The notes under the pieces are model-generated. The model searched no databases, had not been told where the DNA came from, and saw only the letters and a list, made by a program, of their open reading frames with translations. 64,000 nt of DNA from a virus. The position numbers were made by a program, and so were the translations under genes. Below are positions 1 to 39,598 of the stretch, one piece after another; position 1 is the first letter of the stretch, and every line of letters begins with the position of its first letter. The stretch covers positions 115,648-179,647 of the IMG/VR virus record IMGVR_UViG_3300026097_000805; one strand, 5' to 3'.

Positions 1-219
1 AAAAGTGTCTTTATTGCCAAAAAACACATCACCCAAGTGGTATACAATATCACCGGGCTTGACAACACGGTTCCAGTTTTCGATCATTGTTTCGTCCATT
101 TCTTCAACAGAACTAAAACGATCGCCACGAACTAACTTACCTGTGCGTGAATCCACAAAGTTAAGGATATTGGCATGTTGAAAGTGTGTATCACTAATTA
201 ACCAAATATCTCTAGACAT
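1..219 (-). CDS. Calcineurin-like metallophosphoesterase, N-terminal part (runs off window)
   Basis: Manual translation MSRDIWLISDTHFQHANILNF...VVKPGDIVYHLGDVFFG shows the DxH and GD metallophosphoesterase motifs; RBS GGAGG upstream. Confidence 0.85.
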   Translation of the reverse strand, partial: MSRDIWLISDTHFQHANILNFVDSRTGKLVRGDRFSSVEEMDETMIENWNRVVKPGDIVYHLGDVFFGNKDTF

Positions 220-248
220 GTTGCCCTCCTTTCTTAAGTGTTAATAGT

Positions 249-277
249 ATTATATGTGTATTTAACTTGTTTGTCAA
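249..277 (-). promoter_or_regulatory. Sigma70-type promoter
   Basis: TTGACA-17bp-TATAAT upstream of the phosphoesterase gene. Confidence 0.8.
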
Positions 278-284
278 CCAATAG

Positions 285-360
285 TGGTGCTAGAGGACGG
301 AATCGAACCGCCGACACGAGAATCTTCAATACCCTGCTCTACCGACTGAGCTACTCTAGC
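285..360 (-). tRNA. tRNA-Phe(GAA)
   Basis: 76-nt cloverleaf, loop TT-GAA-GA, encoded CCA. Confidence 0.92.
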
Positions 361-364
361 ATTA

Positions 365-435
365 TGGTAGTAAATGATAGAATCGAACTATCTCTTCAGG
401 CTTATGAGACCCGAGTCCGGACCACCGGATTTACT
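365..435 (-). tRNA. Atypical CAT-anticodon tRNA (Met or Ile2)
   Basis: Acceptor AGTAAAT/ATTTACT, loop CT-CAT-AA, T-arm GATAG-TTCGATT-CTATC, CCA; D-arm non-canonical. Confidence 0.7.
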
Positions 436-436
436 A

Positions 437-519
437 TGGAGTGCAAGACAGGACTCGAACCTGCATAGTCTTACGACACGGATTTGCAATCCGATGCATA
501 ACCATTCTGCCACTTGCAC
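437..519 (-). tRNA. tRNA-Cys(GCA) with long variable arm
   Basis: 83 nt, loop TT-GCA-AA, discriminator U73, extra hairpin GTC-GTAA-GAC. Confidence 0.88.
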
Positions 520-520
520 A

Positions 521-596
521 TGGCTGGGGCGGAAGGACTCGAACCTCCAATCGACAGAATCAAAATCTGTTGCATTACCAATTATGCTACACCCCA
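521..596 (-). tRNA. tRNA-Gln(TTG)
   Basis: Cloverleaf, TTG anticodon, CCA. Confidence 0.93.
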
Positions 597-601
597 AAAC
601 T

Positions 602-677
602 TGGTGGACTCGCTCGGATTCGAACCGAGGACCAATTGATTAAAAGTCAACTGCTCTACCAACTGAGCTACGAGTCC
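602..677 (-). tRNA. tRNA-Lys(TTT)
   Basis: Cloverleaf, loop CT-TTT-AA, CCA. Confidence 0.95.
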
Positions 678-678
678 A

Positions 679-762
679 TGGTGGGGAAGGTAGGATTCGA
701 ACCTACTCACTTTACGAACTGATTTACAGTCAGCCGCGCCTCTCCAACTGCGCCGCTTCCCC
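679..762 (-). tRNA. tRNA-Tyr(GTA)
   Basis: 84-nt type II cloverleaf, CT-GTA-AA, CCA. Confidence 0.95.
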
Positions 763-763
763 A

Positions 764-839
764 TGGTGTCAAAGGATGGACTTGAACCATCGACCTAACG
801 GTTATCAGCCGTTTGCTCTACCAACTGAGCTACATTGAC
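764..839 (-). tRNA. tRNA-Ile(GAT)
   Basis: Cloverleaf, CT-GAT-AA, CCA. Confidence 0.95.
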
Positions 840-844
840 AAACT

Positions 845-918
845 TGGCACCGGTCCAGGGAATCGAACCCCGAGTTTCAGTTTTGGAGACTGACGTGTTG
901 CCATTACACTAGACCGAT
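845..918 (-). tRNA. tRNA-Trp(CCA)
   Basis: Cloverleaf, CT-CCA-AA, CCA end; first tRNA after attenuator 1. Confidence 0.93.
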
Positions 919-939
919 ATAAAACTTTTTCCTCCTACT

Positions 940-980
940 AAAAATAAAAAACCCCTGCTAATATCTCTACTAGCAGGGGT
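940..980 (-). terminator. Intrinsic terminator / attenuator 1
   Basis: ACCCCTGCTA-10nt-TAGCAGGGGT followed by TTTTTATTTTT; lies between the leader ORF and tRNA-Trp. Confidence 0.85.
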
Positions 981-1004
981 GCGTTAAATAACTTTTCTTG
1001 ACTA

Positions 1005-1082
1005 CTATGTCAAAAGCACACTCCTGCCTTCGCTAAACCAGCGAATGCAATATTGTTGAATATGTTTCATCATTGTAGTCAT
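1005..1082 (-). CDS. Putative attenuator leader peptide 1, MTTMMKHIQQYCIRWFSEGRSVLLT (25 aa)
   Basis: Manual translation; purine-rich AAAGAGA upstream, promoter ~40 nt upstream, double TAG stop, then terminator; codons match the downstream tRNAs. Confidence 0.75.
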   Translation of the reverse strand: MTTMMKHIQQYCIRWFSEGRSVLLT

Positions 1083-1119
1083 TTCTATTTCTCTTTGTTT
1101 AATTTCTTAGTATGTGTAT

Positions 1120-1148
1120 ACTATACACGTTTATTTATCTTCTGTCAA
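1120..1148 (-). promoter_or_regulatory. Sigma70-type promoter driving leader 1; spacer also contains GATAAATA late-type motif
   Basis: TTGACA-GAAGATAAATAAACGTG(17)-TATAGT. Confidence 0.8.
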
Positions 1149-1163
1149 CCGTTTATTTTACTT

Positions 1164-1187
1164 TTTGACAATTTAGATACAATATTT
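1164..1187. repeat. 24-bp inverted repeat copy A (pairs with 2564-2587)
   Basis: TTTGACAATTTAGATACAATATTT is the exact reverse complement of 2564-2587. Confidence 0.95.
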
Positions 1188-1191
1188 TAAA

Positions 1192-1266
1192 TGGTACACC
1201 GTAGGGGAATCGAACCCCTCTTTCCTGCGTGAAAGGCAAGCGTCCTAACCGATAGACGAACGGTGC
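1192..1266 (-). tRNA. tRNA-Glu(TTC)
   Basis: Cloverleaf, CT-TTC-AC, CCA. Confidence 0.94.
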
Positions 1267-1271
1267 ATATA

Positions 1272-1348
<77 letters not shown>

Positions 1349-1354
1349 AATAAT

Positions 1355-1447
1355 TGGCGGTGAGGGTGGGATTTGAACCCACGGAACGCTATTAACGTTC
1401 GTCTGTTTTCAAGACAGGTGCAATAAGCCGGACTCTGCCACCTCACC
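1355..1447 (-). tRNA. tRNA-Ser(TGA)
   Basis: 93-nt type II cloverleaf, CT-TGA-AA, CCA. Confidence 0.94.
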
Positions 1448-1454
1448 AATAAAT

Positions 1455-1740
1455 TGGCAGCCCGTTAGCCACACACCGTTGGAATGATGCTTGTGACCCC
1501 TACACTGTAATAGCCCTGCTGTCTAGTTTATCAGTCTAGGGCACAAACTATTGTTTAGGTATAGGACTTTTGCTTCTCACTAAAGACCGCCACGGACCAA
1601 CGGACGGCACTCTTTAGAACTAACACTAATGCAAAGAGCAAGTGGTTAACCAATGCATCGACCTAGTTACTTGATAGACTATATCATATCTTTCGCTACT
1701 ATCGGGCGGTTCAGGCCCTTATCGCCGTCTCTTTCGAGCT
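1455..1740 (-). ncRNA. Unknown ~286-nt structured RNA with acceptor-like stem and CCA end
   Basis: 5' AGCTCG pairs with 3' CGGGCT-G-CCA; several internal hairpins; occupies a tRNA slot in the array; no T-arm, no ORF. Confidence 0.6.
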
Positions 1741-1750
1741 AGTGTGTAGT

Positions 1751-1826
1751 TGGTAGCGGGAGCAGGAATCGAACCTACCTCAGTCCGGCTTATGAGACCA
1801 GTGAGTTCCCAGAACTCTATCCCGCA
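1751..1826 (-). tRNA. tRNA-fMet(CAT), initiator-like
   Basis: CT-CAT-AA loop, 1:72 mismatch (T/T), CCA. Confidence 0.85.
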
Positions 1827-1829
1827 ACT

Positions 1830-1903
1830 TGGAGCGGATACCGAGAATCGAACTCGGACGATCACGTTGGCAACGTGAGAGGCTACCTTTACATCATATC
1901 CGC
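1830..1903 (-). tRNA. tRNA-Gly(GCC)
   Basis: Cloverleaf, TT-GCC-AA, U73, CCA. Confidence 0.92.
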
Positions 1904-1907
1904 AATA

Positions 1908-1983
1908 TGGTGGAGATACGCGGGATCGAACCGCGGACCTGAAGCTTGCAAAGCTACTGCTCTCCCATCTGAGCTATATCCCC
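1908..1983 (-). tRNA. tRNA-Ala(TGC)
   Basis: Cloverleaf, TGC anticodon, G3:U70, CCA. Confidence 0.95.
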
Positions 1984-1988
1984 ATTAA

Positions 1989-2065
<77 letters not shown>

Positions 2066-2072
2066 TTTAATA

Positions 2073-2155
2073 TGGTGCCCTGGGGGAGACTCGAACTCCC
2101 ACTCCGAAGAACTGGTACCTAAAACCAGCGTGTCTACCAATTCCACCACCAGGGC
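2073..2155 (-). tRNA. tRNA-Leu(TAG)
   Basis: Type II cloverleaf, TT-TAG-GT, CCA. Confidence 0.94.
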
Positions 2156-2161
2156 AATTTA

Positions 2162-2236
2162 TGGTGCTGATGGAGAGAATCGAACTCCCAATCTACGCAT
2201 TACAAGTGCGTTGCCTTACCATTCGGCCACATCAGC
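2162..2236 (-). tRNA. tRNA-Thr(TGT)
   Basis: Cloverleaf, CT-TGT-AA, CCA. Confidence 0.93.
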
Positions 2237-2242
2237 AATATT

Positions 2243-2317
2243 TGGAGCGGGTGGACGGGATCGAACCGACGACACCTGACTTGGAAGGACAGTGCTCTAC
2301 CACTGAGCTACACCCGC
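2243..2317 (-). tRNA. tRNA-Gly(TCC)
   Basis: Cloverleaf, CT-TCC-AA, T-T mismatch in anticodon stem, CCA. Confidence 0.92.
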
Positions 2318-2321
2318 AATA

Positions 2322-2410
2322 TGGCGGAGCGACTGGGAGTCGAACCCAGTGAACGCGGTTAGCGTTCTACGGATTAGCAATCCGCTGCATTACCATCCTG
2401 CCCCCGCTCC
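2322..2410 (-). tRNA. tRNA-Ser(GCT)
   Basis: Type II cloverleaf, TT-GCT-AA, CCA. Confidence 0.94.
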
Positions 2411-2419
2411 GTATGTGTT

Positions 2420-2475
2420 TGGCTCTACCCTCCCCTCTGGGCGATTTAACTAACGAGGCATCTTGCGTTAGTACC
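2420..2475 (-). ncRNA. ~56-nt CCA-ending hairpin element (mini-RNA or tRNA remnant)
   Basis: ACTAACG/CGTTAGT hairpin, ends GCCA, flanked by the same short spacers as neighbouring tRNAs. Confidence 0.3.
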
Positions 2476-2480
2476 ATGTT

Positions 2481-2555
2481 TGGCTCCCGGTGTTGGAATC
2501 GAACCAACCAATGACGGATTAACAGTCCGCTCCCCCACCTTGGGGGCAACCGGGA
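2481..2555 (-). tRNA. tRNA-Asn(GTT)
   Basis: CT-GTT-AA loop, CCA; unusual C5/G5 D-stem. Confidence 0.9.
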
Positions 2556-2563
2556 ATAAACCT

Positions 2564-2614
2564 AAATATTGTATCTAAATTGTCAAAGAGCGTGTAGCAA
2601 GTTCTTCTTGCTAC
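2564..2614 (-). promoter_or_regulatory. rrn-like leader: boxB-like hairpin, boxA-like GCTCTTTGACAATTTA and inverted repeat copy B (2564-2587)
   Basis: GTAGCAAG-AAGAA-CTTGCTAC hairpin followed by a sequence resembling rrn boxA (TGCTCTTTAACAATTTA). Confidence 0.6.
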
Positions 2615-2625
2615 GTTATGTATAT

Positions 2626-2654
2626 ACTATACTACTTTATTCTGTGCCTGTCAA
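2626..2654 (-). promoter_or_regulatory. Sigma70-type promoter for tRNA array 2
   Basis: TTGACA-17bp-TATAGT. Confidence 0.8.
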
Positions 2655-2674
2655 CTACTATTTTGCCTTAAACC

Positions 2675-2713
2675 AAAAAAAAACCTTCCTTGCTGTGTGC
2701 TTGGAAGGTTTTT
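2675..2713 (-). terminator. Intrinsic terminator / attenuator 2
   Basis: AAAAACCTTCC-13nt-GGAAGG followed by T9. Confidence 0.85.
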
Positions 2714-2737
2714 GGAATCTTGTTAGCTAATGCTCGC

Positions 2738-2827
2738 TTACGTTCCGCAACCCTCCAGGCATAGACTACCCGCTGGATTTTCCGATCCAGGTGTCCATGT
2801 ATCTAATGTGAGTACGAATGTAAACAT
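2738..2827 (-). CDS. Putative attenuator leader peptide 2, MFTFVLTLDTWTPGSENPAGSLCLEGCGT (29 aa)
   Basis: Manual translation; AAGGA RBS and GATAAATA motif upstream; terminator 25 nt after stop; codons match array 2. Confidence 0.75.
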   Translation of the reverse strand: MFTFVLTLDTWTPGSENPAGSLCLEGCGT

Positions 2828-2916
2828 TGAAAGTTTTTTCCTTATTAACTATGCATTTATTTATCATCTAGATAAAAAACACGCACATATTGGCTTATTT
2901 TTGGAACTTTGCTGTG

Positions 2917-3513
2917 TTAATATCTCTTAGGATGAATAAATGAAGAAATAGAAAATCTACCATCTATTGCATCATCCGACTGCATTTTTACCGGTTCTAC
3001 ATTATGTATTAAACAACTGGGAAATAGCACAGTTCTTGCATTCTTCAGTTGAATATTGTTGCCTGCAATATTAAAATCTCCACCTGTAAACTTTTTTGGT
3101 TCCTTAAATAACCATGTAATACACGACATCAAAGCTGTATCTGCATGAGGCTTGTAATAGTCGCCTTCATTGTACCTTGATAACAACACGTCATACTCGA
3201 ACTCACAAAATAAGAATTCAAAAAAATTACTTTTGCTTGCTAAACTTTGCTTTATCTGTAGATCATAAAGTTTTTTATGAACATTAATAATATCACTATA
3301 TTCCGGATTTATCACTTGATGAATCCAGATTCCTTTATTCTTTTTTAAATCTTGGCCTGTTAGATCAATTGCTGACCCAGTATTATTAGGGTTAAGCAAC
3401 TTTGAAGACAAAAATGATACTTCTTTCCAAATTGCAGAAATTTCTTTGTCGTCAAAAAAATTGTCTATAATAGCAACAGGTAAGTCTTTTACTTTAAGGA
3501 TTTGTAAATGCAT
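2917..3513 (-). CDS. 2OG-Fe(II) oxygenase (prolyl-4-hydroxylase-like)
   Basis: HxD (YYKPHAD), GGDF, H...R-x-S motifs. Confidence 0.85.
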   Translation of the reverse strand: MHLQILKVKDLPVAIIDNFFDDKEISAIWKEVSFLSSKLLNPNNTGSAIDLTGQDLKKNKGIWIHQVINPEYSDIINVHKKLYDLQIKQSLASKSNFFEFLFCEFEYDVLLSRYNEGDYYKPHADTALMSCITWLFKEPKKFTGGDFNIAGNNIQLKNARTVLFPSCLIHNVEPVKMQSDDAIDGRFSISSFIHPKRY

Positions 3514-38947: not shown

Positions 38948-39063
38948 ATAAAATATTCCTTTTTTCTTATTTGGAGTGAGTTTGTTGCCCACTTAGTAAT
39001 TATAGATATGCCGAGTATTTTGCACTTGTTCTAGAGCGGATTTAAGTTGATTTTGAGTATAAT

Positions 39064-39097
39064 AAAAAAGAGTGTTGCATCGCTACAACACTCTTTT
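39064..39097 (-). terminator. Terminator after tmRNA
   Basis: AAAAGAGTGTTG-8nt-CAACACTCTTTTTT. Confidence 0.8.
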
Positions 39098-39104
39098 GCT
39101 ATGT

Positions 39105-39393
39105 TTGATAACAAGGTCTAACTACCTCGTAGCGATTAAGCCGCTAATGCCGTTTCTGGCGCATAATTGTCGTTTGCAATTATAGTTTTCGTTCGCGTTA
39201 ACCGAGCTTACATCCGGACAACTCCACTTACCTATTAAACGTCAATCGATCCTATCTCAGCCCCATCATAAACACATGCCCGACGTTTCTTATGTCTCAA
39301 TATGCTATCTGCATATCCAGCACATGTGCTTATGGTGGAGCTGCCGGGATTCGCACCCGGGTCTTGTCCGTCGTTGAGTTTGCTTCAACGTTG
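39105..39393 (-). ncRNA. ssrA: Two-piece circularly permuted tmRNA, tag ANDNYAPETALAA
   Basis: Acceptor piece ...CCGGGTGCGAATCCCGGCAGCTCCACCA (CCA ends 39333), spacer, coding piece from GGGGCTG (39264), G3:U70, tag ORF 39136-39177; outer ends approximate. Confidence 0.92.
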
Positions 39394-39424
39394 TAGTATA
39401 TTTATAACACAATTCTAAAATGTG

Positions 39425-39598
39425 TCAACCTAAAAATACCAAACCCCAGCCGTGATTGGCAATTGCATTCAGTATAATAGCAAGACAGGTAGCAATGTGT
39501 AAAAGTATCCACACTGTGCGGATCATTGCTACCTTATCTGCTTTGCGGTCGTCGTCATAGGCTTTGTGACCTATAGCTTTACACCACAGTTCCCACAT
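39425..39598 (-). CDS. Small membrane protein (57 aa)
   Basis: Manual translation MWELWCKAIG.KA..DD..ADKVAMIRT. Confidence 0.6.
   Translation of the reverse strand: MWELWCKAIGHKAYDDDRKADKVAMIRTVWILLHIATCLAIILNAIANHGWGLVFLG

Follow-up and report, generated by a model that had tools for sequence, protein, structure and literature searches.

A codon-matched leader in front of a phage transfer RNA array: a probable ribosome-mediated transcription attenuator

Known attenuators and the leader unit of the window

Multivalent leader-peptide attenuators are known from the ilvGMEDA leader, with its Ile, Leu and Val codons, and from the thr leader, with Thr and Ile codons; further leaders of this kind are trpL, hisL, leuL and pheL. 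To our knowledge, all known leader-peptide attenuators regulate amino-acid biosynthesis enzymes or aminoacyl-transfer RNA (tRNA) synthetases. Here, we describe a leader unit on the minus strand of a phage genome, at positions 940 to 1148 of a 64,000-nucleotide (nt) stretch of IMG/VR record IMGVR_UViG_3300026097_000805 (the window), where the genes that would be regulated are eight tRNA genes (array 2), outside the usual attenuator targets. No description of leader-peptide attenuation of tRNA genes or of phage tRNA arrays was found in the full text of a limited literature, an absence that is not proof. From the sequence and modelled folds, a probability of roughly 0.7 is assigned to the reading that the unit is a ribosome-mediated (leader-peptide) transcription attenuator controlling entry into array 2. 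An earlier note on the same DNA had proposed this interpretation; the architecture and the codon match on which it drew held up, but its short protector helix and its prediction of further tRNA genes for His and Arg failed.

In anatomy, the unit comes closest to the multivalent ilv and thr leaders. With the enterobacterial leaders it shares a promoter-proximal short open reading frame (ORF), control codons placed in a putative region 1, predicted hairpins 1:2, 2:3 and 3:4 that would exclude one another, and an intrinsic terminator with a U-tract, as well as a stop codon that would put the terminating ribosome on region 2 and a predicted terminated state when the leader is untranslated. Unlike these leaders, it is phage-encoded and would regulate tRNA genes rather than biosynthetic enzymes. 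In place of runs of one to three amino acids, it holds about one codon (one or two) for each of 8–10 tRNAs, and the controlled product would be the very molecule that is sensed, so that feedback would be direct.

Attenuation of a component of the translation apparatus is likewise found in Escherichia coli pheST, where the pheM leader precedes the genes of phenylalanyl-tRNA synthetase; that system differs from the window unit in sensing a single amino acid, in having a protein-coding target and in being chromosomal. T-box riboswitches of Gram-positive bacteria also sense tRNA charging and switch between terminator and antiterminator, but a T-box binds one uncharged tRNA via a specifier codon and the T-box sequence without translation, whereas the window unit has a conserved ORF. 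A T-box was rejected as a candidate: at gathering score, Rfam gave no family match in the window, T-box included, and a permissive scan of 900–1200 returned only generic terminator-containing leaders below threshold (PyrG leader, 31.5 bits, with a gathering score of 65). The phage probably infects alphaproteobacteria (see below), and in this group the trpE(G) attenuator of Sinorhizobium meliloti is ribosome-dependent; trans roles of its products rnTrpL and peTrpL are documented (PMC7298713, PMC7968998). The machinery of the probable host group thus supports the proposed mechanism, although the S. meliloti leader differs from the window unit in holding Trp codons only and in serving a biosynthetic gene.

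The whole unit lies on the minus strand in the order promoter, leader ORF, terminator and tRNA-Trp. The sigma-70-type promoter P2 (1120–1148) combines a −35 element TTGACA (1148–1143), a 17-nt spacer and a −10 element TATAGT (1125–1120), giving a consensus score of 11/12, and is also found in relatives of the window type. A weak Shine-Dalgarno-like AAGAG (1091–1095) lies 8 nt 5' of the ATG, with the same motif and distance in relatives. The leader ORF of 25 codons plus stop (1005–1082) begins with ATG at 1082, ends with TAG at 1007–1005 and is intact in all 13 distinct variants of the unit described below. It is followed by an intrinsic terminator (941–980) with a 13-base-pair (bp) stem (980–951; −22.1 kcal/mol) and a U-tract (950–941), and tRNA-Trp begins at 918, about 23–33 nt past the terminator. 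A consensus scan, of sigma-70 type only, found no promoter-like site at 950–919. Promoter, ORF and terminator were thus recovered at the coordinates that the earlier note had given, and the promoterless gap that it had described was confirmed by the scan. An internal promoter candidate with TTGACA at the ORF end and a poor −10 element was dropped, since its transcript would retain the whole terminator.

Array 2 (285–918, minus strand) comprises tRNA-Trp(CCA), Ile(GAT), Tyr(GTA), Lys(TTT), Gln(TTG), Cys(GCA), Met(CAT) and Phe(GAA), with intergenic gaps of 1–5 nt. Upstream of it lies array 1 (2555–1192, minus strand), with 12 tRNAs from Asn through Glu.

Match between leader codons and downstream tRNA genes

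Codons 4–16 of the leader (1035–1073, minus strand; hereafter the roster block) read Met-Met-Lys-His-Ile-Gln-Gln-Tyr-Cys-Ile-Arg-Trp-Phe. Under standard wobble, 11 of these 13 codons are readable by the eight tRNAs of array 2, the exceptions being CAT (His) and CGC (Arg); count and exceptions are those put forward earlier. Chance was assessed by a six-frame scan of the whole 179.6-kb genome, which yielded 181,981 stop-free windows of 13 codons. Only two of them cover all eight array-2 tRNAs, namely the roster block and its neighbour shifted by one codon. When the ten-tRNA set of relatives was applied, the roster block alone had all 13 codons within the set. For random 24-codon peptides drawn at phage codon usage, the probability of a run of 13 codons within the ten-tRNA set was 2.5e-6, and none of 2 million such peptides also covered all ten tRNAs. 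We conclude that the codon match is not due to chance.

A second leader stands upstream of array 1. Leader 1 is an ORF of 29 codons (2738–2827, minus strand) with its own terminator at about 2673–2710 (stem about 2710–2682), the 5' arm of which shows complementarity to the 3' end of the leader. Its central block lists amino acids of array 1 (Asp, Thr, Pro, Gly, Ser, Glu, Asn, Ala and Leu); no other window of the genome covers 11 of the 12 array-1 tRNAs as this block, starting from 2803, does. The split of amino acids between the two leaders parallels the split between the two arrays. Leader 1 differs from the unit at 940–1148 in that a strong promoter (2654–2626) follows its terminator. No homologue was found by blastn of 2620–2850 against all fetched loci (labelled here by L-numbers). 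By eye, L118 has a functional counterpart that is differently worded and contains Val codons, and its array has tRNA-Val; L063, L087 and L116 show promoters but no leader ORF before array 1.

The arrangement recurs in Sphingobium phage Lacusarx (KY629563, locus L130), an unrelated phage of a GC-rich host without sequence similarity to the window phage. Two gaps of its tRNA region each hold a promoter and an unannotated short ORF (L130:6492–6596 and L130:7864–7932), so that, as in the window, a promoter is followed by a short ORF matched to the tRNAs behind it. In the first ORF, 13 codons in a row can be read by the downstream tRNAs for Lys, Gly, Asp, Glu, Arg and Phe. For the second ORF, the downstream set Ser, Leu, Thr, His, Gln, Cys and Trp accounts for 19 of 21 residues, and all nine tRNAs are covered at the codon level. 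The hairpins after these ORFs lack a clean U-tract, which makes a terminator function less clear than in the window. The Lacusarx genome paper does not mention the ORFs, and the words leader and attenuation are absent from it. Judged at the level of sequence, putative codon-matched leaders are present in at least two unrelated phage lineages. A screen of all fetched loci also brought up L041, from a distant phage, where a 41-codon ORF covers 7 of 8 tRNAs; its composition is too broad to count, and it was rejected.

The relatives of the window unit allow the match to be followed through evolution. The phosphoesterase gene adjoining the array led to 54 viral contigs, among them L003 with the same leader preceding Trp, Ile, Tyr, Lys, Gln, Cys, Met, Arg(ACG), Phe and His(GTG). 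Further units were found in viral and metagenome contigs with a pattern built on the conserved hairpin, giving a total of 33 loci with 13 distinct leader-to-terminator sequences and nine leader-and-array combinations; related contigs came from marine and other environmental metagenomes. Among cultured phages, DNA searches (1–3000 for near and 800–1300 for distant ones) returned tRNA-gene matches only and no cultured relative of the leader. In all 33 loci, the unit is directly upstream of a tRNA array, with Trp as the first gene except in the L014 type, where Tyr precedes Trp. Start codon and reading frame are conserved, the frame surviving a 3-nt indel. Twelve of the 13 variants share the position of the stop codon, which begins 4 nt past the antiterminator strand (region 2, see below); in the window copy, through a 1-nt difference, it lies two codons later and begins 10 nt past that strand.

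Within codons 4–13, the peptide sequence is not conserved, and the replacements observed (Met to Ile, His to Gln, Gln to Lys and Tyr to His) remain within the tRNA set. The L058 type has a reordered 14-codon block made only of Gln, Lys, His, Met, Ile, Cys, Arg, Trp and Phe. Across all nine combinations, each amino acid with a downstream tRNA is present in the leader. Tyr codon and downstream tRNA-Tyr agree in eight of the nine: the L058 and L075 types have neither, tRNA-Tyr of the L058 type being located in array 1 instead (L087, L124), and L061 lacks both Lys and Tyr in leader and array alike. In the L067 type, the Tyr codon is kept and a divergent tRNA-Tyr, missed by ARAGORN, is present. This tRNA-Tyr(GTA) has an unusual T-loop and sits in an 87–88-nt gap between tRNA-Ile and tRNA-Lys (L067, oriented 2259–2343; also L098, L111, L115 and L118). 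From sequence comparison, this looks like selection on leader composition and not on peptide sequence.

The two codons without a partner in the window deserve separate mention. The earlier note had predicted tRNA-His(GTG) and tRNA-Arg(ACG) to the left of the window; ARAGORN found neither a tRNA-His nor a tRNA-Arg anywhere in the 179,647-bp contig, so the prediction fell. The same anticodons, Arg(ACG) and His(GTG), are carried by several relatives, and most relatives with a complete array have Arg(ACG) or Arg(TCG) together with His(GTG) in the same array. In the window phage, both genes are cleanly absent between otherwise near-identical neighbours. Since most complete-array relatives carry both, a loss in the window phage is suggested, and the His and Arg codons of the leader are read as probable relics of lost tRNA genes.

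It might be argued that the ORF, between its own promoter and terminator, is a small phage gene of the ordinary kind and resembles the tRNA set by coincidence. Small ORFs are indeed common between phage tRNA genes; the tRNA region of phage T5 (NC_005859), like that of the window, has promoters, terminators and small ORFs among its tRNA genes, and twelve T5 small ORFs, when translated, gave ordinary-looking small proteins in which the tRNAs nearby are not listed. Coincidence would have to account for the random-peptide result above (2.5e-6, and none in 2 million covering all ten tRNAs), for a block that is the unique maximum of the genome, for a second leader matched to the other array and for the recurrence in Lacusarx, as well as for a composition that is conserved while the peptide sequence is not. 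We regard this explanation as close to excluded.

Predicted RNA structures and the proposed switch

In the minimum-free-energy fold of the full leader, a long hairpin is combined with the terminator. Its 5' strand, region 1 (1047–1081, minus strand; ORF nt 2–36), acts in the model as anti-antiterminator: nt 2–36, spanning codons 1–12, pair with nt 56–84, the start codon with the stop region and codons 5–9 with region 2. The hairpin is capped by an apical hairpin of 7 bp with a 3-nt loop (1029–1045; nt 38–54), the most conserved stretch of the unit. Region 2, the 5' strand of the antiterminator (1017–1028; nt 55–66), pairs with region 1 in the long hairpin, and the remaining 3' strand (999–1016; nt 67–84) includes the stop codon and pairs with the start-codon region. 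The antiterminator is completed by region 3 (972–983), its 3' strand, which overlaps the 5' arm of the terminator. All these segments lie on the minus strand.

The antiterminator joins 1028–1017 with 983–972 in 11 of 12 pairs, two of them G-U; our recount agrees with the pairing drawn in the earlier note, and variant comparison supports it. Across the 13 variants, 92.7% of alignment cells are paired, compared with 34–59% after sliding of the partner columns. Changes on both sides are seen at three pairs, and one of 500 shuffles scored as high as the real alignment. One position covaries in three strands, namely the leader and both terminator arms: it is A-U in most variants, G-U in L003 and L083, and G-C in L117, where the 3' arm of the terminator has changed too. 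Within the terminator, six pairs have changes on both sides among the variants. L058 and L014, which carry another terminator type, have a matching G-run at the ORF end. MAFFT sets these two terminators one column off register, so that antiterminator pairs are undercounted there and duplex energies were used instead. By that measure, region 2 of most variants strongly prefers region 3 of its own unit to that of the other terminator type: for the window type, energies are −17.0 to −18.7 kcal/mol with the window-type region 3 and −2.7 to −9.3 kcal/mol with the L058/L014 type. Anatomy, statistical uniqueness of the codon match, conservation and covariation are direct observations.

Masking nt 1–36 or 1–48 as a proxy for a stalled ribosome produced the antiterminator in the predicted fold of the nascent RNA, and a ribosome mask at the stop codon abolished it. 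Comparative support for the long hairpin is weaker: 85.7% of its cells are paired across the variants, double-sided changes are limited to two pairs, and the types L058 and L014 do not conform to it. The protector helix proposed previously (1025–1049) does exist, but the competing role ascribed to it fails: it overlaps the antiterminator by 4 nt only, and its 7-bp core (1045–1029) coexists with the antiterminator. According to the folds, the competitor is more probably the long hairpin, which would make the roster codons region 1, as in classical attenuators; a stall at an early codon could therefore still free region 2 in the model. The stem of the apical hairpin is invariant in 12 of 13 variants, and in L014 the loop alone changes. 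Its role as a pause hairpin for RNA polymerase is a guess.

We infer that the ORF is translated and that ribosomes stall on it, and the same standing applies to the direction of the response and to any pausing. In the proposed mechanism, transcripts would originate at P2, with a probable further supply by read-through from array 1, and codons 4–16 would supply one or two codons per array tRNA. Without translation, the long hairpin would lock the antiterminator strand, and the terminator would form and stop transcription about 25 nt before tRNA-Trp. With smooth translation, the ribosome at the stop codon would sit on the antiterminator strand, and again the terminator would form. If a charged tRNA is scarce, the ribosome would be held on a roster codon, occupying region 1; region 2 could then pair with the 5' arm of the terminator, and RNA polymerase would read into the array. 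Polymerases coming from the array-1 promoter would also have to pass the array-2 terminator. Because the array products would speed decoding of the same codons, the circuit would amount to negative feedback on tRNA supply, demand-driven in that tRNAs would be made when roster codons are decoded slowly and supply shut once they are abundant.

In another explanation, the ORF is untranslated: the unit would work as a switch of RNA alone, or as a plain partial terminator, with the array served by constitutive leaky read-through or by antitermination-modified polymerases from array 1. The weak Shine-Dalgarno match speaks for it, as does the long hairpin, which once formed is predicted to occlude the start codon. 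It gives no reason for the retained ATG, for the frame kept across a 3-nt indel or for the fixed stop position, and leaves unexplained why substitutions are confined to codons of downstream tRNAs and why the block is unique in the genome. We therefore consider it quite improbable.

A different possibility is that the roster ORF is translated and the output is not attenuation of the array: the terminated RNA of about 140 nt, or the peptide, would act in trans or report translation capacity elsewhere. The terminated product is predicted to fold into a stable, highly structured small RNA, nucleotide conservation of the apical hairpin exceeds coding need, and the likely hosts are alphaproteobacteria, for which trans roles of attenuator RNAs and leader peptides are documented (PMC7298713, PMC7968998). 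It remains unexplained on these terms why the unit always stands directly before the array that it lists, why a promoter-free stretch follows the terminator and why the ORF-end strand covaries with the 5' arm of the terminator. As a replacement for attenuation, a trans function appears unlikely; as an addition to it, such a role could exist.

Several points weigh against an attenuator. The Shine-Dalgarno match (AAGAG) is weak. Taken alone, the antiterminator duplex of the window is modest evidence: a partner of this strength (−17 kcal/mol) is expected by chance in an 85-nt leader with a probability of about 0.07. Moreover, the variants are closely related, perhaps representing three to four independent lineages, hence the small covariation counts. 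In the folds, a stall at codons 15–16 (Trp, Phe) partly covers region 2 and leaves an antiterminator of about −9 kcal/mol; the caveat that the earlier note had attached to these codons thus stands. The full L014 leader is already antiterminated in its minimum-free-energy fold. On the codon side, L082 has a Tyr codon without tRNA-Tyr, L061 retains several orphan codons after shrinkage of its array, codons for Asn, Thr, Ile and Leu in the L014 leader lack a tRNA downstream, and the window genome itself retains His and Arg codons without matching tRNAs. Under standard wobble, CGC is unreadable by the Arg(TCG) of some relatives.

Genomic setting and consequences for phage tRNA supply

The window is the final 64 kb of one 179,647-bp contig (G+C 38.6%) with phage gene content, including ribonucleotide reductase, a virion protein, DNA ligase and phosphoesterase. 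A PHROGs search with ten large ORFs returned ribonucleotide reductase, a methyltransferase and a structural protein, and no clear phage family. ARAGORN found 20 tRNAs and one transfer-messenger RNA (tmRNA) in the whole contig; all 20 tRNA genes are on the minus strand, from 2555 to 285, split into the two arrays. Strong sigma-70-type promoters lie at 2654–2626, 1148–1120 and 277–249, the last being the next one beyond P2 and positioned after array 2.

The spacer of P2 contains GATAAATAA (1139–1131), which occurs in eight minus-strand copies genome-wide and in none on the plus strand, with about two per strand expected. A copy at 2857–2865 precedes the other leader, six further genomic sites exist, and the motif is kept in relatives; in L014, it precedes the leader at a place without a visible −35 element. 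The motif resembles T4-type late promoters, and the leaders may therefore be transcribed both early and late. Between terminator and tRNA-Trp, a strong Shine-Dalgarno-like AGGAGG (931–936, minus strand) is not followed by a start codon. At the same place, L014 has a real 18-codon ORF with a strong ribosome-binding site directly 5' of tRNA-Tyr (L014:1441–1497).

Array 1 is bracketed by a perfect 24-nt inverted repeat (1164–1187 and 2564–2587, read from the sequence), the 3' half of which ends 16 nt short of the −35 element of P2. Within array 1, between tRNA-Met and tRNA-Ser, 300 nt on the minus strand (1448–1750) contain no tRNA, Rfam match or convincing ORF and may represent a new stable RNA. 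A conserved, structured sequence of about 130 nt without a tRNA call lies in or beside the tRNA arrays of L014 (831–980) and L004 (about 1925–2057), which may likewise be a small stable RNA.

Other relatives show rearrangements around the unit. In L002, which by phosphoesterase is the nearest relative (94% identity), another unit stands before the array (L002:1655–1850). It consists of a promoter, a 34-codon ORF in which 18 of the 20 amino acids are represented, and an L058-type terminator, whose 5' arm and flank are complementary to the ORF end. In L058 (1330–2232), and also in L063, L064, L068 and L092, the tRNA-Trp behind the attenuator is disrupted after its first approximately 20 nt by about 0.8 kb, flanked by a second Trp-like gene and the old tRNA 3' end; the sister contigs L060 and L087 are without the insert.

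The tmRNA (39045–39429, minus strand) is permuted, two-piece and of alpha type, and its 13-residue tag ends in Ala-Leu-Ala-Ala. Because the phage encodes an alpha-type permuted tmRNA, the host group is likely to be the alphaproteobacteria; similarity to tmRNAs of Brevundimonas phages amounts to a 40-nt match only. The same phage would thus combine a putative sensing of stalled ribosomes with a ribosome-rescue RNA of its own.

Purpose and control of phage tRNA genes have been debated for decades. The main roles proposed for these tRNAs are codon compensation and, more recently, the replacement of host tRNAs cut by defence nucleases (PMC10264068, PMC11464382, PMC11555353). As a more tentative extension, to which we give somewhat less than even odds, the leader might be a multiplexed decoding-speed meter, in which a track of 13 codons polls up to ten tRNAs and the array opens if any one of them fails, and such leaders might form a general, undescribed layer across unrelated phage families. 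If so, they would provide on-demand replacement of host tRNAs in the face of poorly decoded AT-rich codons, host shutdown or tRNA-cleaving nucleases.

Should the attenuator be real, leader-peptide attenuation would extend to tRNA genes and from one to three to about ten sensed amino acids. For annotation, a short ORF preceding a tRNA array would be treated as a regulatory part and not as a hypothetical protein, and orphan codons in such leaders would point to tRNA genes lost by the phage. For the phage itself, it would mean that it measures the decoding of exactly those codons and couples its tRNA production to the measurement.

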